DNA of 64,000 nt from contig CAXXXD010000004.1 in NCBI GenBank assembly GCA_963663385.2, positions 96,001 through 160,000 on the forward strand, read 5' to 3'. Position 1 is the stretch's first letter, and every line of letters starts with the position of its first letter. Under the pieces are notes generated by a model. The model worked only from the letters and a program-made list of their open reading frames with translations. It was not told the origin of the DNA and made no database searches. This document shows, piece after piece, positions 11,873 to 63,480 of the stretch. The DNA comes from Oceanispirochaeta sp. Lineage in GTDB: Bacteria > Spirochaetota > Spirochaetia > DSM-2461. The translations under genes and the position numbers were made by a program.

Positions 11873-12874
11873 GTGTCCTCTCAACAAGATGTAGCAATTT
11901 TAGCCAATGTTTCTTTAATGACAGTATCAAGAGTTATTAATAATTCTCCCAGTGTGAAAGCATCTACAAGAAAAAAAGTATTAAAGGCAATAGATAAACT
12001 GGATTATGTTCCCAATGCTACGGCGAGAGCGTTAAACACAGGTAAAACTAGAAATATAGGTGTGATATTTCCTCATACAGAATATATTTTTTCACACCCG
12101 TTTTTTGTCGAACTGTCAATTGCTCTTGAAGAACAGTTAGGCAGAAGGGGGTATCATCTGTTTCTTGGAATGAACAGAACAGGTGAAGATAGTAAGCAAT
12201 CAACCAATCTACTCTCTGAGAAGAAAGTCGATGGTATTATTCTGATAGCTCCTGTTATGGAAGAACCTGTCATAGAGAAGCTGAAAAAAGCCAAACTGCC
12301 CTTTCTTTTATTAAATGGAAGAGGTGAAGATAATGAAGTCTTCGTCGATACGGATAATATTGAAGGCACTAAGCTTTTAATGAACCATCTTTTTAAACTC
12401 GGTCACAGGAAAATAGGTTTTGTAACAGGAAATATGTCTGAAAGAAATGCCAATGACAGATATTATACTTATATCAATGAGTTAAAAAACAGGGGTATCC
12501 CCTTTGATAATAAACTAATCTACCGGGGCGATTGGACAATTGAGTCAGGCTACAATGCCTTCAACACAATCATAGAAAGAAACAGCGATCCTACAGCTAT
12601 TCTTTTTTCCAATGACCAGATGGCTATAGGCGGTATCAGAGCCGCTTTTGAAAAAAATATATTTATTCCTGAAGATATATCGATCTGCGGGTATGATAAT
12701 ACGAAATATTCCCGGTTTTCCGTGCCCTCTCTGACAACAATACATCAACCTCTTACTACTCTGACAGAAAAAGCAACAGAACTGATAATAAAGCAAATTG
12801 AGGGTAACGTTTCTGAGGGGAATGTAATAATTTCTCCCGAATTGAAAATCAGACAGTCTACAAGGCAGTTGTAA
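11873..12874 (+). CDS. LacI-family transcriptional regulator
   Basis: DVA..ANVS..TVSRVIN HTH, YVPN..ARAL hinge, LTTIHQP; likely GTG start at 11873 (ORF open from 11840). Confidence 0.93.
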   Translation: MSSQQDVAILANVSLMTVSRVINNSPSVKASTRKKVLKAIDKLDYVPNATARALNTGKTRNIGVIFPHTEYIFSHPFFVELSIALEEQLGRRGYHLFLGMNRTGEDSKQSTNLLSEKKVDGIILIAPVMEEPVIEKLKKAKLPFLLLNGRGEDNEVFVDTDNIEGTKLLMNHLFKLGHRKIGFVTGNMSERNANDRYYTYINELKNRGIPFDNKLIYRGDWTIESGYNAFNTIIERNSDPTAILFSNDQMAIGGIRAAFEKNIFIPEDISICGYDNTKYSRFSVPSLTTIHQPLTTLTEKATELIIKQIEGNVSEGNVIISPELKIRQSTRQL

Positions 12875-12954
12875 TCATTACTATAATGAATTGTTTCTAT
12901 TAAGAGGGAGCTTTTGTTGAACGGAGCAGCATATTTGCTCCGCAATATTGGCTT

Positions 12955-13248
12955 TATTGAAATCCCCCTGTATTTTATGAATATTTTAGAAAAATGATGG
13001 CGGTCGCCGAATTCCAATGATTCGGCGATTGTCTCAATGGAATCTTCCCCGTGATCCAGGCGGATGCATGCGTCTTCAATACGGCGGTAGTTAATATACC
13101 GGCCCGGACTCTGTCCCGGTTTTCCTGTAAAGAATTTTTCAGTACGGCTCAGGGACAGGTTGGCTATTTCCGACAGGCTTTCGTTTCTGTGAGTGAAACG
13201 GGAGACCTTCTTCGATGGTATCCGGTACAATGGCAATTCTGTTCTCAT
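12955..13248 (-). pseudogene. Remnant of an AraC-family regulator (C-terminal HTH only)
   Basis: SLSEIANLSLSR...GQSPGRYINYRRIEDACIRL...SIETIAESLEFGDRHHFSKIF; no N-terminal domain; frame runs into non-homologous sequence antisense to the LacI gene; ends approximate. Confidence 0.6.
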
Positions 13249-13286: not shown

Positions 13287-13314
13287 TTGACACTCTCGGA
13301 TTTTCAGTTATATT
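13287..13314 (+). promoter_or_regulatory. sigma70-like promoter of leader copy 1
   Basis: TTGACA-N16-TATATT; very similar to the promoter at 55595-55622. Confidence 0.7.
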
Positions 13315-13332
13315 GGGAGCTAATATTTAACT

Positions 13333-13483
13333 GGCAGACTAAGGACCCTTAATGCTAACGGTGTCTGCTTATATCTTGATTTAATGAGGTGTAGGTAGTA
13401 AATGCAAGGTGTCCGGACTGCAGGGAATTCCCTCACCGGGACGTACTGGAATTCTGCCTTACCTTCTGTAAAAGGCAGAGTTT
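13333..13483 (+). ncRNA. Conserved structured 5' leader, copy 1 (candidate riboswitch/translational attenuator)
   Basis: GCAGAC-TAAGGACCCTTAATGCTAACGGT-GTCTGC core repeated at 55640 and 60052; alternative helix and SD-sequestering hairpin downstream. Confidence 0.75.
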
Positions 13484-14509
13484 ATGAAAAAAGTAGAAAA
13501 AGGTTTTATCTTTACCAGTTCCGCGTATGTTCTGAAGAACAGTCAGGTCAGATATTACGATTCCATAGAGAAAAATCCGGTTGTAGGAGATGTGGTTTAT
13601 GGAGAAATCTGTCATATAGGCCAGCATTCCAGTCTGGAGAATAAATCCGGTCGAATCCATCAAATCCATAATGGCAGCCGGGCTCTTTTTGTCTTCGGTA
13701 ATCGATACGCTCCGGACTATTATGAGGCTTTTGTACCCGACAGTTTTGAGCCGGAAGTGGATCTTCATGCCCGCAGCGGATTAATCGGTACCGTAAAAAC
13801 AAAAAACTCCCTGATCAAGGATCCATCGAGGGTTAGAATCCTGGGGTATCTCTGTGACGAAAGCGGTAAGGTTATCAACACAAGAGATTATCCTCTGATT
13901 GTGCCCAGAAAAAAGGAAAAGGTGTTCCCCCGGTCAAAGATGATTCTTGTCTGCGGAACTGCCATGAATTCCGGAAAAAGCGTATCCGCCGCTTCTATCT
14001 GCTGGGCCCTGTCCAGGATGGGCCATACGGTCAAAGGATCCAAAATCACGGGAACCGCAAGCCTGAAAGATATTCTGCACATGAATGATGCGGGAGCCGA
14101 TTCATTTTCCGACTTCACATACCTTGGATATCCCACAACCTATATGCTTGATGAAAAAGAGATTGTGGAGGTGTTCAATCATATAGATCTTAAATACGCA
14201 AACAATCCGCAGAATTACTGGGTTGTGGAATTTGCCGACGGAATCAACCAGAGGGAAACGGAAATGCTGTTAATGCATCCCGATGTCAGGAAGAGAATAC
14301 ACAAGCTGGTTTTCTGTGCCAACGATGCTTTCGGTGCAATAGGAGGCGTAAAGTATCTAAAGGAAAAGATAGATCTTACGCCTGATCTGATTTCCGGAGT
14401 CTGTACAAGTTCACCTCTGCATATGCGGGAGCTGAGCAAAGTTACAGATATTCCTATTTTTGATAATATGAATATTAACATTGAAGAGATTAGAGAGAAA
14501 ATAGTCTGA
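13484..14509 (+). CDS. DUF1611-related P-loop-like protein
   Basis: GNRYAPD, VCGTAMNSGKS, KITGT, VVEFADGINQRET; family assignment from recalled motifs. Confidence 0.65.
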   Translation: MKKVEKGFIFTSSAYVLKNSQVRYYDSIEKNPVVGDVVYGEICHIGQHSSLENKSGRIHQIHNGSRALFVFGNRYAPDYYEAFVPDSFEPEVDLHARSGLIGTVKTKNSLIKDPSRVRILGYLCDESGKVINTRDYPLIVPRKKEKVFPRSKMILVCGTAMNSGKSVSAASICWALSRMGHTVKGSKITGTASLKDILHMNDAGADSFSDFTYLGYPTTYMLDEKEIVEVFNHIDLKYANNPQNYWVVEFADGINQRETEMLLMHPDVRKRIHKLVFCANDAFGAIGGVKYLKEKIDLTPDLISGVCTSSPLHMRELSKVTDIPIFDNMNINIEEIREKIV

Positions 14510-54327: not shown

Positions 54328-55485
54328 TCAGGCAGCACAGGGCCGCAGGTTTTTCTCCTCTTTTTGTTTTTTACACAGGATCTGCCGTGTAATGATGACA
54401 GCATACAGAAAGACGGAAACCGCGGCTGAGAGAAGTATCAGGGAATAGAGGCCTGTATTGGGGATAAATATCTTATACAGAAAGGTTCCAAGTACCGCAA
54501 AGGCGACAAAGGGACAGATAAGGCTCCACGTTTCTATATAAAACTTTCCGGTATTCAATTCTCTGGAAAAATACTCCTTCATGACAGAAAGACCGAATCC
54601 CAGGTACCAGAACTCAAAAACAAATCCGCCCAGTACAATCAGGACTGCAAGCCAGTGCATATGGAACTCAAACTGTTTTTCAAAGTAGTGAACAAGTCGG
54701 AATCCGCTGATGGACAGGAGGGTTGTAATGGGAACAGGAGAGAGCAGGGCGGGCATCCCTTTGGGGGCAGGCAGAGATTCTGAATTGAACTGATTTTTCA
54801 GGGCATGGTAGAAGAACAGCCCAAAGAGGAAGACGGTCTGTGATCCGGAAAGAAAAGATAAAAAGGCGGCGATCCCGCTTATGACAGGAGAGTTGGCCAT
54901 CGCAGCCAGTCCCGTACCAGTTACAGTCGTCATTGCCAGAGCAAACGGATGAAGAAGCCAGCTGAAATTTATCTTATCCAAAGAAAAATTTCGGGAAAAA
55001 AGTGACATGAGCATACCTGTCTCTTTTACTATAATGGCTGCCCACAGGATACTCCATAGAGTCAGGGCCGGTGCCATCAGTAACTGAAAATGGTTATGGA
55101 AAAGGGGAACAAAAAACCGGACTACCGCAATAAACACATTAAAAGTCATACCAATTGAAATAAACGGGGTGACAAGAGTGGTGTTATGAAGGGAATCTTT
55201 CTTAAGCTGATAGTATGCGGGAGATCTCATCCATCTGAAAAGACGGGTGAAAAGCTGAGCCGAAAGGATTAAATGAACCGTCCCGAATAGCAGCATTATG
55301 CCCATTAGCAGGGGAAAAAGAACAGACTGAAAGGGGGATAAACCGTCAAATTGAATCCCGTTAAAAGATATAAGACCAGGTCCGCTGTAATAAGTATACT
55401 GAAGAAAGGCAAACGGGATAATTGAGATGCCGCCCGCACCTACAGCTGAAAGAAACTGAAGAGGATAAAACTCTTTCTTTTCCAT
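54328..55485 (-). CDS. Multi-pass membrane protein, TsoY-like (tentative)
   Basis: About 10 hydrophobic segments; N-terminal PLQFLSAVGAGGISIIPF resembles the TsoY family as recalled. Confidence 0.5.
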   Translation of the reverse strand: MEKKEFYPLQFLSAVGAGGISIIPFAFLQYTYYSGPGLISFNGIQFDGLSPFQSVLFPLLMGIMLLFGTVHLILSAQLFTRLFRWMRSPAYYQLKKDSLHNTTLVTPFISIGMTFNVFIAVVRFFVPLFHNHFQLLMAPALTLWSILWAAIIVKETGMLMSLFSRNFSLDKINFSWLLHPFALAMTTVTGTGLAAMANSPVISGIAAFLSFLSGSQTVFLFGLFFYHALKNQFNSESLPAPKGMPALLSPVPITTLLSISGFRLVHYFEKQFEFHMHWLAVLIVLGGFVFEFWYLGFGLSVMKEYFSRELNTGKFYIETWSLICPFVAFAVLGTFLYKIFIPNTGLYSLILLSAAVSVFLYAVIITRQILCKKQKEEKNLRPCAA

Positions 55486-55594
55486 TATTGAGAACTCCTA
55501 AAGTTAAATAAGTGTATATAGTAAATATTGCATATTGTAAAAGTAGTCAATAGAATCATGGAAAAACTTCTATTTAAAAACGTTAAACTCTATA

Positions 55595-55622
55595 TTGACA
55601 AGCATCGAATTTCAGCTATATT
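55595..55622 (+). promoter_or_regulatory. sigma70-like promoter of leader copy 2
   Basis: TTGACA-N16-TATATT. Confidence 0.7.
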
Positions 55623-55638
55623 TGAACATAACATTCAT

Positions 55639-55817
55639 AGCAGACAAAGGACCCTTAATGCTAACAATGTCTGCTTATATCTTTTTTATTCGAAGGAATT
55701 TTCCTGAAAGGGAAATCGTTGAAGGTATAAGTAGTTTCGTTGTAGGTATATAGGGGGGGAGGTCTCGGTCTCCCTGAACAGCGCAGCTCCTCTCTTCGCC
55801 TTCGAAAAGGAGTCATT
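55639..55817 (+). ncRNA. Conserved structured 5' leader, copy 2
   Basis: AGCAGACA-AAGGACCCTTAATGCTAACAA-TGTCTGCT; alternative helix and SD-sequestering hairpin. Confidence 0.75.
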
Positions 55818-56021
55818 ATGAGTTCCAAATTATGGTTTGTTACAAACGGTGTACAGCTGATTCATGTCTTCGAAAAAAGGTCCCTGGCCGAGCAGGAGTT
55901 GAAGAAGTATCAGGACGATCCTGATTACGGTTACTATGATTGCTACGGTCTGGATATCGACGATCTGGAAGACTATCCGGAAGAATATGATATTGCTCTG
56001 GACGAAGGATTCCTTGATTAA
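55818..56021 (+). CDS. Small acidic protein (67 aa), unknown function
   Basis: Strong SD AAGGAG; first ORF after leader copy 2; D/E/Y-rich C-terminal half. Confidence 0.75.
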   Translation: MSSKLWFVTNGVQLIHVFEKRSLAEQELKKYQDDPDYGYYDCYGLDIDDLEDYPEEYDIALDEGFLD

Positions 56022-56070
56022 TGCCGGGATGGATTATTTCCCGGGCGATTGAATGGGAAGGTGTTACTGA

Positions 56071-57279
56071 TTGAAAGATTTTCTTGTCTTCGAAGGGATT
56101 AGTAAATCCTTCGGATCTGTAGAAGTTATCAAAGATCTGAATCTTAACGTCAAAAAGGGAGAGGTCTTCAGTCTGTTGGGACCATCGGGCTGCGGGAAAA
56201 CCACTCTTCTGAAAATATGCGGTGGATTTGAAGAACCCGATGCAGGCAGGATGCTGTTGAATGGCAAGGATATCCTGTCCCTGCCGGGGCATAAGCGTCC
56301 GGTCAATACGGTATTTCAGAATTATGCCCTGTTTCCGCATCTGTCTGTGGGTGAGAATATAGCTTTTGGTCTGAAAGTTTCCCGCAAAGGGTTTTCCAGA
56401 AAAGAGATTTCCAGGGAAGTGGACTGGGCTCTCGATCTTATTCAGATGAATGAATATATCCATAGCAGACCTTCAGAGCTATCAGGAGGTCAGAAGCAGC
56501 GGGTTGCTATTGCAAGAGCGGTTATCAACAAACCGGAGCTCCTGCTTCTGGACGAGCCTTTGGCTGCGCTCGACCTCAAACTCCGTCAGAAAATGCTGCT
56601 GGAACTGGATCAGATTCATGACGAAGTAGGCATAACTTTTCTTTTTGTAACCCATGACCAGGGGGAGGCTATGAGCCTCTCCGACAGAATCGCCATCATG
56701 AACCTGGGGAAAATTGAGCAGGTAGGATCTCCCGCGGAGATCTATGAAAGTCCTGTTTCCAGTTTTACAGCGGCTTTTATTGGTGATACGAATTTTTTTG
56801 ACGGGATTGTCAAATCCCAGAGTGAAGACGGTCAGTATTCAATACTTGATATTGAAGGACTTCCGTCAGCCCGTTGCTACAACGATCAGGCTCATACAGT
56901 GGGGGACCATATCAACCTGTCACTGAGGCCTGAGAAGATCAGGATCAGCAGGAAAGAACCCGAAACTGACAAGTCCCTGAACATTATTAAAGGGGTTGTG
57001 GAAGATAAGGTCTATCTGGGGGCGTATACAAAATACTGGGTTCGCTGCGGAAACTGGCTGATTGTTGTCCTTAATGCTCACAGGCATTTTCTGCTGGACC
57101 GGAATCCTCCGGAATGGGAAGATGAAGTCTGGCTCAGCTGGCATCAGGACGACGGTTTTATATTGCTGAAATACAGGAAAAAGGACGAAGTCCTTTTAAC
57201 GAATCCTGATGAAAAATATGCCGGGATGACCCCTGATCTACAGCCGGGGGCCATACTGCAGTCGGAAGAAGACTCATGA
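56071..57279 (+). CDS. potA: Spermidine/putrescine ABC transporter ATP-binding protein
   Basis: GPSGCGKTT, RPVNTVFQNYALFPH, LSGGQKQRVAIARA, TOBE-like C-terminus. Confidence 0.9.
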   Translation: MKDFLVFEGISKSFGSVEVIKDLNLNVKKGEVFSLLGPSGCGKTTLLKICGGFEEPDAGRMLLNGKDILSLPGHKRPVNTVFQNYALFPHLSVGENIAFGLKVSRKGFSRKEISREVDWALDLIQMNEYIHSRPSELSGGQKQRVAIARAVINKPELLLLDEPLAALDLKLRQKMLLELDQIHDEVGITFLFVTHDQGEAMSLSDRIAIMNLGKIEQVGSPAEIYESPVSSFTAAFIGDTNFFDGIVKSQSEDGQYSILDIEGLPSARCYNDQAHTVGDHINLSLRPEKIRISRKEPETDKSLNIIKGVVEDKVYLGAYTKYWVRCGNWLIVVLNAHRHFLLDRNPPEWEDEVWLSWHQDDGFILLKYRKKDEVLLTNPDEKYAGMTPDLQPGAILQSEEDS

Positions 57280-58133
57280 AGAAACATGAGCTTGTGCTGA
57301 CAACTCCCTCATTCCTCTGGCTCAGTATATTTTTTATTATTCCATCGGCTCTTGTCCTCTTTATCAGCTTCAGGGGAACCGACTCTTATGGCGTCCTTAT
57401 GCCGGTATGGACACTGGATGCGTACAGGTCCCTTTCCGGGATGAATCTGATGCCGGTTATTATCAGGACCCTCAGGCTCAGTCTGTATACCACTTTGATC
57501 TGTCTGATCCTTGCCATTCCGGCCGCCTATGCCATGTCCCGATTGAGCAGGGGGGCGCAGACAATTCTGTTAATGATTCTGGTTGTTCCCTTCTGGACGA
57601 ATTTCCTTATCCGCATCTATGCCTGGAAAGTCCTGCTTCATCCCGATGGATTTATTAAGCAGATTTTTGTCTTTCTAGGGCTGATCGATCAGAATACGAC
57701 CCTTCTCTATACGGAAGGGGCCGTGCTTCTCGTTCTGGTCTATACCTATCTACCTTTTGCCCTGCTCCCCCTATACAGCGCTGCCGACAGCTTTGATATC
57801 ACACTGCTTGATGCCGGCAGGGATTTGGGAAGCAATACACTGCAGCTTATAATCAGGGTTTACCTTCCCGGTATCCGACAGGGGATTATTAATGCGGTCC
57901 TGGTTGTTTTTATCCCGGTCATGGGCAGCTACATCATTCCTGAAATTGTCGGTGGTCCGAATTCGGAAATGCTGGGAAACAAGATTGCCCAGTATGTATT
58001 CACTGACAGGAATATTCCCCGGGCAGGAGCCCTCTCGGGATTTCTGATTCTCATTATCCTCCTTCCATCCCTGATCTCTCTTATAAACAGGGAGAGTCCG
58101 GCCAAAAGCCGGAAGGAGCTGGTGCAGGCATGA
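57276..58133 (+). CDS. potB: Spermidine/putrescine ABC transporter permease
   Basis: PFWTNFLIRIYAW, YTYLPF..LPLY, DAGRDLG. Confidence 0.88.
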   Translation: MKKHELVLTTPSFLWLSIFFIIPSALVLFISFRGTDSYGVLMPVWTLDAYRSLSGMNLMPVIIRTLRLSLYTTLICLILAIPAAYAMSRLSRGAQTILLMILVVPFWTNFLIRIYAWKVLLHPDGFIKQIFVFLGLIDQNTTLLYTEGAVLLVLVYTYLPFALLPLYSAADSFDITLLDAGRDLGSNTLQLIIRVYLPGIRQGIINAVLVVFIPVMGSYIIPEIVGGPNSEMLGNKIAQYVFTDRNIPRAGALSGFLILIILLPSLISLINRESPAKSRKELVQA

Positions 58134-58906
58134 AAAGGAAATCGGCTTTTCCGATGATAATACTCATACTGATTCTTGTTTTCTTCTACCTCCCCCTGTT
58201 TGTACTGGTCATCAATTCATTCAACGCATCCCGGGTCTCTTCAGTATGGGGGGGATTTTCTCTGAAATGGTATAAGAAGCTGCTGGGTGACCAGAATCTG
58301 CTCCGCTCTGTCAAAAATACTGTGATTGTAACAAGTGTCTCGGTATTCTGTTCAACAGTACTGGGGAGTCTGGCGGGTGTGAGCATTGCCCGTTTCAGGA
58401 GCAGGGTGCAAAAAGTGCATTCAGTCTTTATCGCTCTCCCCCTGATCATGCCGGATATCCTGATCGGTATCAGTCTCCTTCTGTTCTTTATCTCATTCAG
58501 GATTCAGCTCTCTCTGCTGACGATTATAATAGGGCATATTACCTTCTGTATCAGTTATGTGGCTTCTACGGTTCAGGCCCGGTTTCAGAATTTTGATTTT
58601 TCCCTGATAGAGGCGGCCCAGGATCTGGGTGCTGACAGATGGCAGGTGTTATGGAAAATATATCTGCCCCTGCTGGCGCCGGGAATCCTCTCCGGTGCCA
58701 TGCTGGCCATGACTCTGTCTCTGGATGATTTTATTATCAGTTTTTTTACGGCGGGGCCGGGTGCTTCAACCCTGCCCATACAAATTTACAGTATGATCCG
58801 TCACGGCTCACCCCCTGTGATTAATGCACTTTCCACGCTTTTTATCGGGTTCACGTTTCTGTTCCTGCTGGTTTATCAGCGGATCTCAAGGAGATTAGAT
58901 CAATGA
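58130..58906 (+). CDS. potC: Spermidine/putrescine ABC transporter permease
   Basis: GFSLKWY, LIEAAQDLGA, SLDDF, TLPIQIYSM. Confidence 0.88.
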   Translation: MKRKSAFPMIILILILVFFYLPLFVLVINSFNASRVSSVWGGFSLKWYKKLLGDQNLLRSVKNTVIVTSVSVFCSTVLGSLAGVSIARFRSRVQKVHSVFIALPLIMPDILIGISLLLFFISFRIQLSLLTIIIGHITFCISYVASTVQARFQNFDFSLIEAAQDLGADRWQVLWKIYLPLLAPGILSGAMLAMTLSLDDFIISFFTAGPGASTLPIQIYSMIRHGSPPVINALSTLFIGFTFLFLLVYQRISRRLDQ

Positions 58907-59949
58907 AAAAAAACTTTTATTACCTGCTGTCGGTTATTGTTTTACTGGCTGTTGTTCTGGGCGGATGTTCCAGAGAGAGCAACCGGAAACTCTATCTGTA
59001 CAACTGGTCCGATTATATCGATGAGGAACTGGTAAAGGCCTTTACAGAAGAAACCGGTATCCAGATTATTATGGACTACTTTGATTCAAACGAGTCCATG
59101 TATGCCAAGTTACGTTCCGGAGCCGATGGTTATGATATTGTATTTCCCACCAGCTATATGGTGGAAATCATGAACGCCGGAGGCATGCTGCAGAAAATCG
59201 ATCATGGAAAGCTGGCGAACCTGAAGAATATTGACCCTAAGTTCACCGTCCTTTCGGTCGATTCCGAAATGGAGTACTCTGTTCCCTATATGGTCAGTAC
59301 TACCGGGATAGGGTATCTGGAATCCGGGCTGGGGGAAGTTGAATCTTTGTCCTGGGATATCTTTGCTTCCCCGGATTATTCATCCAAAATGACAATGCTT
59401 AATGATGTGAGAGAGACGATCGGGGCTGCTTTAAAGTACCTCGGTTACTCCTACAATTCCAGGTCCGGACAGGAGCTGGCGGAAGCCAGAGATCTACTTA
59501 TTTCCTGGAAGAGGAATCTGGCGAAATTTGAGAATGATCAGTATAAGAACGGACTGGTCAGCGGAGAGTTTTCCATATGTCAGGGTTACTCGGGGGATAT
59601 CCTTCAGGTTCAGGAAGAGCGGGATGATCTTCGCTTTATTGTACCAAGAGAGGGCACTTCCATCTCCATTGATAATATGGTGATTCTCAGGAATGCGAAG
59701 AATACGGATGCGGCTTATGAGTTTATTGACTATATGTTAAGGGGTGAAGTTGCTGCCTCCAACATTGAGTATGTGTACTACCTGGCTCCCAATACGGCGG
59801 CATACGGTCTTCTGAGTGATGAAATTCGAAATGATCCGGCTGTCTTCATTTCTGATGATGTACTTGAGAATTCCGAGATTCTTCTGGATCTGGGGGATGA
59901 TAATGAACTGTATAGTCGAACCTGGGATGAAATAAAGTCTGCAAAATGA
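58903..59949 (+). CDS. potD: Spermidine/putrescine-binding lipoprotein
   Basis: Lipobox LGGC; YNWSDYID, FDSNE.MYAKL, YSVPYM, YSGD. Confidence 0.88.
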   Translation: MKKNFYYLLSVIVLLAVVLGGCSRESNRKLYLYNWSDYIDEELVKAFTEETGIQIIMDYFDSNESMYAKLRSGADGYDIVFPTSYMVEIMNAGGMLQKIDHGKLANLKNIDPKFTVLSVDSEMEYSVPYMVSTTGIGYLESGLGEVESLSWDIFASPDYSSKMTMLNDVRETIGAALKYLGYSYNSRSGQELAEARDLLISWKRNLAKFENDQYKNGLVSGEFSICQGYSGDILQVQEERDDLRFIVPREGTSISIDNMVILRNAKNTDAAYEFIDYMLRGEVAASNIEYVYYLAPNTAAYGLLSDEIRNDPAVFISDDVLENSEILLDLGDDNELYSRTWDEIKSAK

Positions 59950-59983: not shown

Positions 59984-60011
59984 TTGACAATCTGTAAATA
60001 TGGATTATTTT
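59984..60011 (+). promoter_or_regulatory. sigma70-like promoter of leader copy 3
   Basis: TTGACA-N16-TATTTT. Confidence 0.5.
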
Positions 60012-60051
60012 TTGTGTTAATTCTGCAAGTTTTTTTAACACTTGTACAGGC

Positions 60052-60197
60052 ACAGACTAAGGACCCTTTATGCTAACAAAAGTCTGTTATCATCTTCATG
60101 TGTGCAGAAAGGTCTTGGAGTTGATTTCAGGAATGTTTCGTAGGGGGGATTCCCCTCTTTTTCCATCATGCCTCTCCTCTCGTGAATAGAGGGATAA
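60052..60197 (+). ncRNA. Conserved structured 5' leader, copy 3
   Basis: ACAGACT-AAGGACCCTTTATGCTAACAAA-AGTCTGT with compensatory changes relative to copies 1 and 2. Confidence 0.72.
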
Positions 60198-60272
60198 ATG
60201 GTATTACAATTATATTTCCTGCTTGTATTGATATTATTGCCGATGTGGATGATGACCGGGATATTGCTGTAG
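60198..60272 (+). CDS. Putative 24-aa hydrophobic peptide MVLQLYFLLVLILLPMWMMTGILL
   Basis: SD-like AGAGGG upstream of the ATG; uncharged, almost wholly hydrophobic sequence; ends 13 nt before the next gene. Confidence 0.45.
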   Translation: MVLQLYFLLVLILLPMWMMTGILL

Positions 60273-60285
60273 ATTGGGGGAAATT

Positions 60286-61356
60286 ATGGATACTGATGAA
60301 TTAGTGGATAACGCTTCAGGTCAGTTGAAATCCGTATTGGAATCTCTAACTGGTTTAAGAGATGAAGTTCTGGATTCCTCAAGGAGTCTGGAGGAGAGGC
60401 TTGAGTCATACCAGGATATTATTGCCTCGGAGGTCGGGGACACCATCCTGAGCAGGATGAGAAATTTAGAGAGAAATGCGGGACTGAAACAGCTCTATAT
60501 CAAATTTGAAGGCAGTAACCCCTCCGGTTCACAGAAAGATCGAATTGCGTTTGCCCAGGTTGATGATGCCATGCGGAGGGGGTATAAAAAGATCGTATTT
60601 GCTACTTGCGGAAATTATGGCGTTGCTATTGCCTTTGCCGCATCTCTGGCCGGGATTGAATGTAAAATCTATATTCCGGAAACCTACCATACAAAGAGAG
60701 AAACTGAAATCCTGAAATTTGGAGTTCAAATTGTCAGAAGAGGCAAGGACTATGAAGAATCTGTTTATCTGTCCAGTCGAGAGGCTGTCGAGTTTGACTG
60801 TTATGATGCAAATCCGGGGGGAGTAAACACAAACCTGCAGATCAAAGCCTATGCAGAGATATCTTATGAAATTTACGATGAGTTGAGAGATGCTCCTGCC
60901 ATAGTGGCTGTTCCAGTATCAAACGGGACTACATTGACCGGGATTTACAGAGGATTTGTCTCTCTGTACAGAAGAGGGAAAACCTCAAGAATTCCCAGAA
61001 TAATAGCAGGTTCAAGTTCAAAGAAGAACCCCATTATTGTCTCTTTCAAACGGGGACTGGATGTTTGTGAAGATCTTGATCCGGCTACTGTGAAAGAATC
61101 GGTAGTCAACGAACCTTTGATTAACTGGCACTCAATAGATGGCAATATGGCATTGAGCGCCCTTAAAGAGTCACAGGGCTGGGCATCGGATGTCAGTGAC
61201 AAGAGCATGATGAAATATGCCAGTCTTCTTAAAAATCAGGAGGGATTGTCTGTTCTGCCGGCTTCAACAGCCGGTTTAATAGCCCTTGTGAAGTATAATG
61301 AAATGCAATCTCTTCCGGGAGATCGTTATGTCGCTGTTATTACAGGAAGGAAATAG
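60286..61356 (+). CDS. Fold-type II PLP-dependent enzyme (threonine synthase-like)
   Basis: KFEGSNPSGSQKDR PLP-lysine motif, ATCGNYG, VPVSNGT; N-terminal helical extension. Confidence 0.85.
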   Translation: MDTDELVDNASGQLKSVLESLTGLRDEVLDSSRSLEERLESYQDIIASEVGDTILSRMRNLERNAGLKQLYIKFEGSNPSGSQKDRIAFAQVDDAMRRGYKKIVFATCGNYGVAIAFAASLAGIECKIYIPETYHTKRETEILKFGVQIVRRGKDYEESVYLSSREAVEFDCYDANPGGVNTNLQIKAYAEISYEIYDELRDAPAIVAVPVSNGTTLTGIYRGFVSLYRRGKTSRIPRIIAGSSSKKNPIIVSFKRGLDVCEDLDPATVKESVVNEPLINWHSIDGNMALSALKESQGWASDVSDKSMMKYASLLKNQEGLSVLPASTAGLIALVKYNEMQSLPGDRYVAVITGRK

Positions 61357-61358
61357 GT

Positions 61359-62429
61359 ATGTATATCGATGGTCATGCTGTTGTATATTGTGAGGGAGCT
61401 TTTGCATCGACATATGGGAAAACGGCTCATGGTCTTGTTCGCTATACGCAAAGGTATAATCTGGTTGCGGTCATTGACAGTAGTCTGGCCGGAAGGGATT
61501 CCGGGGATTTTCTTGATAATGCCCCTAATGGTATACCCATAGTCTCATCCCTTAATGAAGCATTTAAAGTAGCGAACTCTCAAACGGTAGAGTTATCCTA
61601 CTTTGTTCTGGGGATTGCCACTGATGGCGGATATTTAACTCAGGATATCAGGTCTGCTGTTATTGAAGCTCTGGAGTCTGGATTGAATGTTGATTCCGGA
61701 CTTCATGACTTTCTTAATGACGACAGGGAAATCAGACTCCTGGCTGAATCATACGGTCTTGGTATTCGTGATATCAGAAAACTGGACGGGAACAGCAACC
61801 ACATGTTCACTGGCAAGATTGAAGAGGTTAAAGCCATAAGAGTTGCGCTGCTTGGCACGGACTCAGCCATCGGAAAAAGGACGACAGCCTGGATAATTAC
61901 CAATGCCATGGCAGACAGGGGGCTCTCGGCAGAATTCATCGGAACAGGCCAGACGGCATGGCTGCAGGGGGCAGACTACAGTATTGTCATGGATTCATTA
62001 CTGAATGATTATGTCAGCGGTGAACTGGAACATATTGTGTGGAAGGCCTGGACTGAAAAAAAAATGGATTATGCCATAATTGAAGGTCAGGGCAGCCTCA
62101 TGAATCCCGGATATCCCGGTGGCTTTGAGATTTTGGCTGCGTGCAGACCCCACGGGATTATTCTTCAGCATTCTCCCTCCCGGAAGGAGTACGACGGATT
62201 TCCGGGGTATCCTCTGGATAGGATAGAGGACCAGATTCACGCTATTGAATTCCTGTCAAAAAAACCGGTAGTCGCCATTACAATTAATCATGAAGGTATC
62301 CGGCGTGATAAAATTGCTGAGGAGTGTCAGGCCCTGGAAAACAAGCTGGGGATACCAGTCGTTGATCCTCTGGTGGATGGTGCAGAACGGATTATTCCGG
62401 TTATTGAAGAGCTGAAAAATGAAAATTGA
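61359..62429 (+). CDS. DUF1611/DgcN-like protein (putative N-acetyltransferase)
   Basis: GKTAHGLVRY, SGLHDFL, GTDSAIGKRTT, GTGQT, IEGQGSL. Confidence 0.82.
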   Translation: MYIDGHAVVYCEGAFASTYGKTAHGLVRYTQRYNLVAVIDSSLAGRDSGDFLDNAPNGIPIVSSLNEAFKVANSQTVELSYFVLGIATDGGYLTQDIRSAVIEALESGLNVDSGLHDFLNDDREIRLLAESYGLGIRDIRKLDGNSNHMFTGKIEEVKAIRVALLGTDSAIGKRTTAWIITNAMADRGLSAEFIGTGQTAWLQGADYSIVMDSLLNDYVSGELEHIVWKAWTEKKMDYAIIEGQGSLMNPGYPGGFEILAACRPHGIILQHSPSRKEYDGFPGYPLDRIEDQIHAIEFLSKKPVVAITINHEGIRRDKIAEECQALENKLGIPVVDPLVDGAERIIPVIEELKNEN

Positions 62430-63480
62430 TGATTTTGAAGTAGTAAAAGTCTGTTTACAGATGAAGGACCCCTATGAGGTCGCCTATGAAAAGTTTGACA
62501 AAGCAGAAAACCTGCTGATCAGAATCAGCGCCGGGAAACTGCATGGATGGGGGTGTATTGCTCCCGATCCTCATGTCACAGGCGAAAATATTGAAGACGT
62601 TTATAGAAAATCTTTAGAGATCCTTCCGGAAGTTCTTCTTAAAAGAGATCCCTTCAGGAAAGCGCTCATAATGAAATATCTGAAAGCGGCAGCTCCGGGG
62701 TTGTTCAGCCTCTGGGCAGGTGTTGATACGGCTCTCTGGGACCTGCTGGGCAAACAGGCCCATCTGCCAATCTGGAAAATCCTGGGAGGATATCGGAACT
62801 ATATCAGTACCAGTGTTACCATAGGTATCTGTGGAATCGACGAGACCCTGGAAAGGGCCCGGGATTTTGAGCTTCAGGGGTTTCATATTCTCAAGATAAA
62901 GGGCGGGAATGATGTTTCGGAGGATATAGCACGGCTTCAGGGACTCCGCTCGGCTCTGGGAACGGATATGAAAATCCGATTTGACGCAAATCAGGGTTAT
63001 TCTGTTGAAGAAGCTCTTTTCTTTGTCAAAAATATAAAAGAACTCGACATTCAGCTGTTTGAACAGCCGACGATTAAATCCAAACCCGATCAGTTGGGTG
63101 CAATTATAAATAAAACAAATATACCAATTATGGCAGACGAAAGCCTGGTTTCTCTTCTGGATGCTTTTTCTCTGGTAAAAAAAGGCCTGATAGATCTGAT
63201 GAATATTAAACTGATGAAAGTGGGCGGGATCACAGAGGCCATCCAGGTCGATGGTCTTGCAAGGGCCGCCGGAGTGGAGGTTATGGTCGGATGTATGGAC
63301 GAAGCGGCTTTGGGTATTTCAGCAGGTCTGCATTTTGCCCTCAGTCGAAAAAACATCAGGTTTGCAGACCTGGATGGCCATCTGGGATTGATTGATGATC
63401 CGTCAATAGAATGCATTTCATTAAACAGGGGGAAACTTTATCCTTCCGGTTCTCCCGGATTCGGCTGGGCAGGGATGTAG
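62419..63480 (+). CDS. Enolase-superfamily dipeptide epimerase/N-acyl-amino acid racemase (L-Ala-D/L-Glu epimerase/DgcA-like)
   Basis: KIKG, RFDANQGY, EQP, MADES, NIKLMKVGG, DLDG. Confidence 0.88.
   Translation: MKIDDFEVVKVCLQMKDPYEVAYEKFDKAENLLIRISAGKLHGWGCIAPDPHVTGENIEDVYRKSLEILPEVLLKRDPFRKALIMKYLKAAAPGLFSLWAGVDTALWDLLGKQAHLPIWKILGGYRNYISTSVTIGICGIDETLERARDFELQGFHILKIKGGNDVSEDIARLQGLRSALGTDMKIRFDANQGYSVEEALFFVKNIKELDIQLFEQPTIKSKPDQLGAIINKTNIPIMADESLVSLLDAFSLVKKGLIDLMNIKLMKVGGITEAIQVDGLARAAGVEVMVGCMDEAALGISAGLHFALSRKNIRFADLDGHLGLIDDPSIECISLNRGKLYPSGSPGFGWAGM

Follow-up and report, generated by a model that had tools for sequence, protein, structure and literature searches.

A lineage-wide leader RNA of Spirochaetia upstream of small acidic protein, polyamine and DUF1611 genes: a candidate orphan riboswitch

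Introduction

Small H-type pseudoknot riboswitches, such as preQ1-I and SAM-II, carry a stem-loop-tail aptamer of about 45 nucleotides (nt) at the 5' end of the transcript. The leader RNA analyzed here has no sequence or Rfam match to these classes and differs from them in that a separate invading strand is predicted to do the switching. The ldcC motif is an orphan element that, in the portion of the report considered here, is presented as a bulged hairpin with a possible invariant pseudoknot, located before genes for arginine, ornithine and SAM decarboxylases, PotA and C39A peptidases, widespread in Firmicutes and also recorded in two Spirochaetes (Weinberg et al., 2017; PMC5737381). The present leader shares with it the hairpin, the possible pseudoknot, the arginine decarboxylase and potA genes downstream and the hosts among Spirochaetes, whereas the predominance of Firmicutes, the bulge and the peptidase genes set ldcC apart, and the module of small acidic protein and DUF1611 genes is not mentioned in the same portion of that report. 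The spermidine riboswitch, a SAM-I variant controlling speE, speB and ldcC, likewise exemplifies RNA control of polyamine synthesis genes but, in the sections of the report that we could consult, is a transcriptional OFF switch with an intrinsic terminator and the large SAM-I architecture (PMC10853860), in contrast to the single stem, the lack of a SAM-I match and the lack of a terminator in copy 2 of the leader. If the guess of a cationic ligand (see below) holds, the closest working analogue would be the Na+-I (DUF1646) riboswitch, which the accessible text presents as a small ON switch of ion-transport and osmotic-stress genes with two extended stems and a terminator, found in other phyla (PMC9337991); the leader, however, has no Rfam match and no Na+ pumps or antiporters were seen in its regulon. 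Other leaders of polyamine genes, as far as the excerpted report describes them, are the alphaproteobacterial odc1 motif, with a stem, a large loop, a pseudoknot formed from the 5' end, the ribosome site inside P1 and a conserved 11-aa upstream reading frame, and the potE motif, which is confined to Veillonella and comes without an expression platform (PMC8632094).

We analyzed a window of 64,000 nt from an Oceanispirochaeta genome. A search of the window with Rfam 15, which includes SAM-I, Na+, Li+, c-di-AMP, guanidine, preQ1, fluoride and potC families, gave no match at the gathering thresholds and only unrelated weak matches at E-values up to 10, and no description of the motif was found in the literature searched, few subscription papers being within its scope. 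On our best reading, the leader belongs to an undescribed class, ldcC being set apart by its verbal description rather than by a consensus sequence.

Results

Leader copies and their layout

Copy 2 of the leader precedes a small acidic protein gene and potABCD, as initially annotated (the first reading frame is conserved and the potA product is recognized by its family model; Table 1). Its promoter is the only promoter-like site on the plus strand within 55400-56200, and transcription would start near 55629. The claim that copy 1 shares this promoter holds: the common pattern occurs at both sites, these being its 2 occurrences in the window, compared to none in 100 shuffles. As read from the sequence, a stem-loop-tail module of about 45 nt begins some 10 nt past the promoter. 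Next comes a strand capable of unzipping it, and after that a hairpin that covers the ribosome site. The GAAA-tetraloop and GGGAG/CTCCC hairpins and the sequestered Shine-Dalgarno (SD) sequence (CTCCTC over AGGAG, 55787/55808) that had been proposed were all found in the minimum free energy (MFE) structure of copy 2, and no terminator-like site was detected in this leader.

Two leader copies had been recognized, but the window contains three, the third located after potD. A covariance model run over the 5.3-Mb genome returned only these three (E-values from 3.4e-19 to 3.6e-14; next match 0.39). The loop is identical between copies 1 and 2 in an 18-nt core, not throughout as had been stated, with 3 of its 23 nt differing elsewhere; similarly, the 8-bp P1 formed by AGCAGACA (55639-46) and TGTCTGCT (55668-75) is complete in copy 2 but reduced to 7 bp with an inner T.T mismatch in copy 1.

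Two neighboring genes were observed along the way. The copy 2 promoter shares its intergenic region with a divergent gene for a TsoY-family membrane protein (54328-55485, minus strand; NF047644 above the cut-off, the selenoprotein model just below), and an AraC-type helix-turn-helix frame (12745-13248, minus strand), possibly a gene fragment, is located shortly before copy 1 on the strand opposite the end of a LacI gene.

Table 1. Coordinates of the leader copies, their elements and the associated genes in the window
Feature	Position	Strand	Remarks
Leader copy 1	13287..13483	+	Upstream of 341-aa protein (13484) and GNAT (14512)
Sigma-70-type promoter, TTGACA-16-TATATT	55595..55622	+	TTGACA 55595-600, 16 nt, TATATT 55617-22; 11/12 consensus match
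P1 stem around 23-nt loop (putative aptamer)	55639..55675	+	Core 6 bp 55640-45/55669-74; paired cells 99.3% over 45 rows
Conserved loop blocks	55649..55665	+	GGACCC (55649-54), GCUAAC (55660-65), 5 nt between; conservation partly circular
AUCUU tail	55679..55683	+	4 variable nt past P1; kept in 53-56/58 per position; absent from search pattern
GAAA-tetraloop spacer hairpin	55700..55715	+	Variable; absent from copy 1; in MFE
Anti-aptamer strand	55721..55758	+	Predicted to pair with tail, P1 3' strand and loop, or alternatively with anti-SD
GGGAG/CUCCC hairpin	55757..55774	+	In MFE; without U run, not a terminator
Anti-SD and Shine-Dalgarno AAGGAG	55787..55812	+	Anti-SD 55787-803, SD 55807-12; paired in free MFE
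Small acidic protein, 67 aa, Spirochaetia family	55818..56021	+	Conserved gene; start covered by the predicted switch
potABCD-type polyamine ABC transporter	56071..59949	+	potA passes TIGR01187, 361 vs cut-off 355.6
Leader copy 3	59984..60197	+	Core 60052-87, extra 5' hairpin, anti-strand 60117-31
Frameshifted, truncated remnant of second small acidic protein gene	60198..60274	+	15-aa tblastx match (60-67%) with intact relatives
PLP enzyme (PRK06381 type), DUF1611 protein, enolase-family epimerase	60274..63480	+	Behind copy 3

After deduplication, 58 copies entered the structural counts and 66 the gene-context count, for which the pattern omitted one degenerate locus (L131); the 66 are distinct and all come from Spirochaetia-type DNA. 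The TTGAC element lies 40-56 nt upstream of the core in 37 of the 58 copies and 66-74 nt upstream in 16 more, often together with an extra 5' hairpin. A promoter-like site at a fixed distance from the core is thus present in 53 copies, with start sites being predicted, and this 5' UTR position suggests that the module is the first part to be transcribed. Several leaders are very short (L047, 2501-2553; L132; L139; L102), with the SD about 6-20 nt past the module; three of these precede speA. There are also divergent back-to-back pairs of leaders of different subtypes, each with its own small acidic protein gene (L054, 2501-2709; L046, 2501-2710; L052, 1708-1920).

The putative aptamer

The module consensus consists of GCAGAC, 3-4 nt, GGA(C/A)CC, 5 nt, GCUAAC, 3-5 nt, GUCUGC, 4 variable nt and AUCUU. 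P1 is the sole stem that RNAalifold predicts from an alignment of 45 rows, in which divergent copies were added and near-duplicates dropped. In this alignment G-C is replaced by A-U in 5 rows and C-G by U-A in 2, four G-U variants affect inner pairs, and the number of cells with two-sided changes (8) was reached by none of 500 shuffles; the copies are kin, so that covariation counts are inflated and the shuffle controls overstate the case. The first, more uniform alignment of 42 distinct rows yielded weak covariation (1 pair, with 113 of 500 shuffles equally high), the stronger signal coming from the 45 rows selected for divergence.

The conservation of the two loop blocks is partly circular because the search patterns required them. 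The tail, which would act as the toehold for the rival helix described below, might also pair with the loop GGA; this 3-bp pseudoknot is plausible from the sequences, with 91% of the cells paired but one two-sided change only and each pair broken in 3-5 of the 45 rows. A mini-hairpin within the loop (A/C-G...C-U/G) was considered and rejected, C-U occurring in 16 of the 58 copies.

Expression platform and predicted direction of switching

The 14-bp alternative helix between CTGCTTATATCTTT (55671-84) and GAAGGTATAAGTAG (55721-34) that had been noticed at the outset was recovered with all 14 pairs, G-U included, and the partner strand of copy 1 indeed keeps pairing, A-to-G changes converting U-A to U-G, a one-sided change only. 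In the MFE structure of copy 2 (-61.5 kcal/mol, z -3.1, with 1 of 200 shuffles as good), this rival helix runs back through the whole loop. In 39 of 58 copies at least 12 of the 14 pairs can form (mean 12.0 vs 10.3 for shuffled sequences), and retention of the helix across spacers of 4-44 nt, together with the covariation of P1, lends good support to the initial proposal of a function at the RNA level. Three subtypes of the downstream strand can be distinguished: in subtypes B and C the same AUCUU tail is invaded by a different strand, GGAGUUG, which pairs in a bulged register, so that the invader appears to vary while its target stays constant. The copy 3 leader additionally contains a terminator-like hairpin (60142-60168) that is retained in its subtype C relatives, and leaders of this subtype may act on transcription as well.

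When copy 2 is folded as a growing transcript, the probability of P1 stays at 0.98-0.99 until about position 55729 and drops to 0.00 once 55730-39 have been made. The unzipped state is lower by approximately 12 kcal/mol in copy 2 and by a median of 5.3 across 50 copies, from which we infer that any control must act kinetically, during transcription. The real middle segment out-competes shuffled segments against the module in 30 of 39 cases. According to these models, the leader is a two-state platform with mutually exclusive folds.

With the module held in place, the SD hexamer opens by more than 0.15 in 27 of 50 copies and closes in 2 (mean gain 0.18 vs 0.03 in shuffled sequences); in copy 2, its open probability rises from 0.05 in the free leader to 0.22-0.24 with P1 held. 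The cost of opening the ribosome footprint depends on the width assumed. For -13..+6, opening becomes cheaper by more than 1 kcal in 29 of 46 copies and dearer in none (12 and 4 for shuffled sequences), for -15..+6 it is cheaper in 23 and dearer in 3, and for -18..+12 it is cheaper in 16 and dearer in 12, so that the ON bias almost vanishes. In copy 2 itself the three footprints change from 8.7 to 6.9, from 9.4 to 11.1 and from 9.9 to 12.2 kcal/mol, that is, ON, OFF and OFF; the direction is ambiguous here because the new helix ends directly before the SD. For the leader family as a whole, the folding models give moderate support to the ON direction.

Phyletic distribution

Within the order, 20 of 38 genomes have matches to the covariance model, as do 9 of 11 genomes in a neighboring order and 17 of a sample of 150 from the class, whereas 149 other genomes of the phylum gave only 8 weak matches (E-values 6.6e-4 to 0.046), all lacking the core. 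An exact-pattern scan of a species-genome collection yielded 28 loci, all 28 in records titled Spirochaetes; a looser pattern gave 11 matches in metagenomes, of which 9 are true copies, all with the same gene families as the other copies. There were no exact-pattern matches in viral contigs and none in two clostridial records, and BLAST searches of plasmids and phages produced chance matches only. Beyond Spirochaetota the search relied on exact patterns, which fix part of the stem, so that variants in other phyla could escape.

Downstream genes

The first gene behind the leader encodes the small acidic protein in 47 of the 66 copies, followed by the 341-aa DUF1611-like protein (4), RimK (4), SpeA (3), a PLP enzyme (2), S21 (2), pyruvoyl arginine decarboxylase (1), a SET protein (1) and others (2). 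Within 900 nt, a range in which some contigs end early, polyamine genes (speA, pyruvoyl arginine decarboxylase, agmatinase or potA) accompany 14 copies, four of them directly preceding speA or the pyruvoyl enzyme, and PLP, DUF1611, RimK, Ddl-like (ATP-grasp) or SET genes accompany 18. The set is mixed, with no dominant class pointing to one ligand, and the appearance of the module before unrelated genes suggests that it has moved, as riboswitches do. Genes of ion transport are few (Trk within 2.2 kb of 1 copy, MscS of 4) and may be chance neighbors of the small acidic protein gene; genes beyond the small acidic protein may in general be mere neighbors.

These contexts bear on the polyamine signal that was suggested initially. 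With the 14 contexts listed above, polyamine genes are genuine members of the regulon, and one leader-controlled speA operon encodes the entire route to spermidine-type polyamines. As the signal itself a polyamine is less well founded: the majority of copies precede the small acidic protein gene or a module unrelated to polyamines, the speA operon of the Oceanispirochaeta genome has no leader, the order has 13 speA loci of which only 3 carry one, and the folding leans toward ON. At copy 2 the predicted switch covers the start of the small acidic protein gene, not that of potA. No promoter-like or terminator-like site was detected on the plus strand between the two genes, and potABCD, judging from the sequence, is probably co-transcribed with the small acidic protein gene. 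A G-C hairpin without a U run directly follows the stop codon of the latter (56024-56044) and may be a processing or stabilizing site ahead of potA.

The 341-aa protein behind copy 1 (13484-14509) has 1439 homologs at E 0.001, many of them more than 60% identical and, by source names, from several phyla; one close homolog is named a DUF1611 domain protein by UniRef, but no Pfam, NCBIfam or PDB sequence match and no pairwise similarity to the DUF1611 protein of the window were found.

The small acidic protein

The family of the small acidic protein is represented by 39 sequences among 1.84 billion and is present in 46 of 401 genomes of the class; 17 of 43 members show a weak match to DUF7336. 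The fold is confidently predicted (pLDDT 87) and no Foldseek match was obtained at E 0.001, the best structural hits being a Tic22-like one with Z 4.8 (rmsd 3.1, 59 residues aligned) and an Atlas hit at 0.84. A deletion that left the gene remnant behind copy 3 seems to have placed the PLP-enzyme operon under that leader. The same genome contains a second intact gene of the family (G000 C3:1187783-1187983), with a short leader without the motif. Leaderless paralogs adjoin proteins that, on inspection of the translations, resemble Ddl-type, PLP and DUF1611 proteins, suggesting that all these may form one module that is controlled by the leader along with polyamine supply.

Discussion

Taken as a comparative record of sequences, the leader is a real, lineage-wide and structurally supported cis-regulatory RNA and a strong candidate for an orphan riboswitch. 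We propose, with a probability of roughly 55%, that it represents an undescribed, kinetically controlled class of translational riboswitches of free-living Spirochaetia. P1 would fold first. In the absence of the ligand, the strand 55721-58 would grip the AUCUU tail and unzip P1 and the loop, and the anti-SD, thus freed, would block ribosome access to the small acidic protein gene. Binding of the ligand would lock the loop and the tail, perhaps as a GGA/UCU pseudoknot, so that the anti-SD is taken up by that same strand and translation is switched ON; downstream genes, such as potABCD, would follow via polarity or mRNA stability. Carriage by a single lineage and a gene set without a dominant class weigh against the proposal.

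A protein could hold or open P1 in place of a small ligand, and this is the rival that survives best, unlikely as it is: the CsrA site consensus resembles the A-N-GGA present in the loop of 53 of 58 copies, the genome has csrA, and genes for RRM proteins, the other candidate binders, lie within 2.2 kb of 8 of the 66 copies (S21 genes near 3), but the loop of 23 nt differs from the usual short hairpin loop of CsrA sites, GCUAAC, the tail and the fixed spacers are left unexplained, and the RRM linkage is almost wholly that of one subtype in one genus. Doubtful to a greater degree is the same fold operating as a polyamine-feedback OFF riboswitch, in which spermidine or putrescine lowers the expression of synthesis and uptake genes. 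The polyamine contexts described above fit this scheme, with potA reached by subtypes A and B and speA by direct and indirect layouts, as do the OFF outcome of the widest footprint in copy 2 and the precedent of the spermidine OFF switch in the consulted part of its report (PMC10853860); against it, two of three accessibility measures favor ON, which suits end-product feedback poorly, in 52 of the 66 copies no polyamine gene lies within 900 nt (a distance that some contigs do not reach), and 10 of 13 speA loci in the order, that of the Oceanispirochaeta genome included, lack the leader.

That the leader is the Spirochaetia form of ldcC, a motif already published, and hence no new class, appears improbable. 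The similar description of hairpin and pseudoknot, the decarboxylase and PotA genes and the two Spirochaetes hosts speak for such kinship, as far as the excerpted account goes, but the same account has ldcC widespread in Firmicutes (PMC5737381), whereas our exact-pattern scans, which may miss other stems, showed no such range, with no match in the two clostridial records; P1 has no bulge, and no Rfam family named ldcC appeared at E-values up to 10 over 20 short loci. Least of all do we expect a DNA operator (the inverted repeat GCAGAC...GTCTGC at a fixed promoter distance) or a leader-peptide attenuator (AAGGA within the loop, 6 nt ahead of an ATG that opens a 31-aa frame in copy 2), given the G-U pairs on the transcribed strand, the arm spacing varying by 0-3 nt and the asymmetric interior in the first case and, in the second, the replacement of ATG by AAG, AGG, ACG, TTG or GTG (T is kept in 45 of 58), a frame of 10 aa in copy 1 against 31 aa in copy 2 and the lack of a conserved start codon or peptide.

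If the leader is indeed a riboswitch, its ligand can be guessed at. An ON switch for polyamine synthesis and import suits a demand signal better than an end product, and the Trk and MscS neighbors together with the hosts, whose habitat we take to be saline from record titles and general knowledge, weakly favor an inorganic cation or salt-stress signal, which is our first, tentative guess. A polyamine is a less likely one, and arginine or agmatine, a nucleotide messenger such as c-di-AMP (the Oceanispirochaeta genome encodes two diadenylate cyclase domains) and any other compound each rank lower still. The fullest form of the proposal, which we regard as speculative and rather unlikely in all its parts, is that the leader contains a new aptamer of the smallest, stem-loop-tail kind for a cation or salt-stress signal without a known RNA sensor (e.g., K+), switching ON polyamine synthesis and uptake together with the module of small acidic protein, DUF1611 protein, PLP enzyme and ATP-grasp ligases.

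The candidate aptamer of 45 nt with its explicit platform is cheap to test, and validated riboswitch classes each reveal a ligand and a regulon. Should a polyamine be bound, this would be a second polyamine aptamer, unrelated to the first. An ON switch for an ion or a messenger would reveal a signal that calls for polyamines and would give a first handle on the small acidic protein family and the DUF1611 and ATP-grasp genes. If true, the cation reading would connect ion balance in spirochaetes of marine and saline habitats with polyamines and an uncharacterized module.
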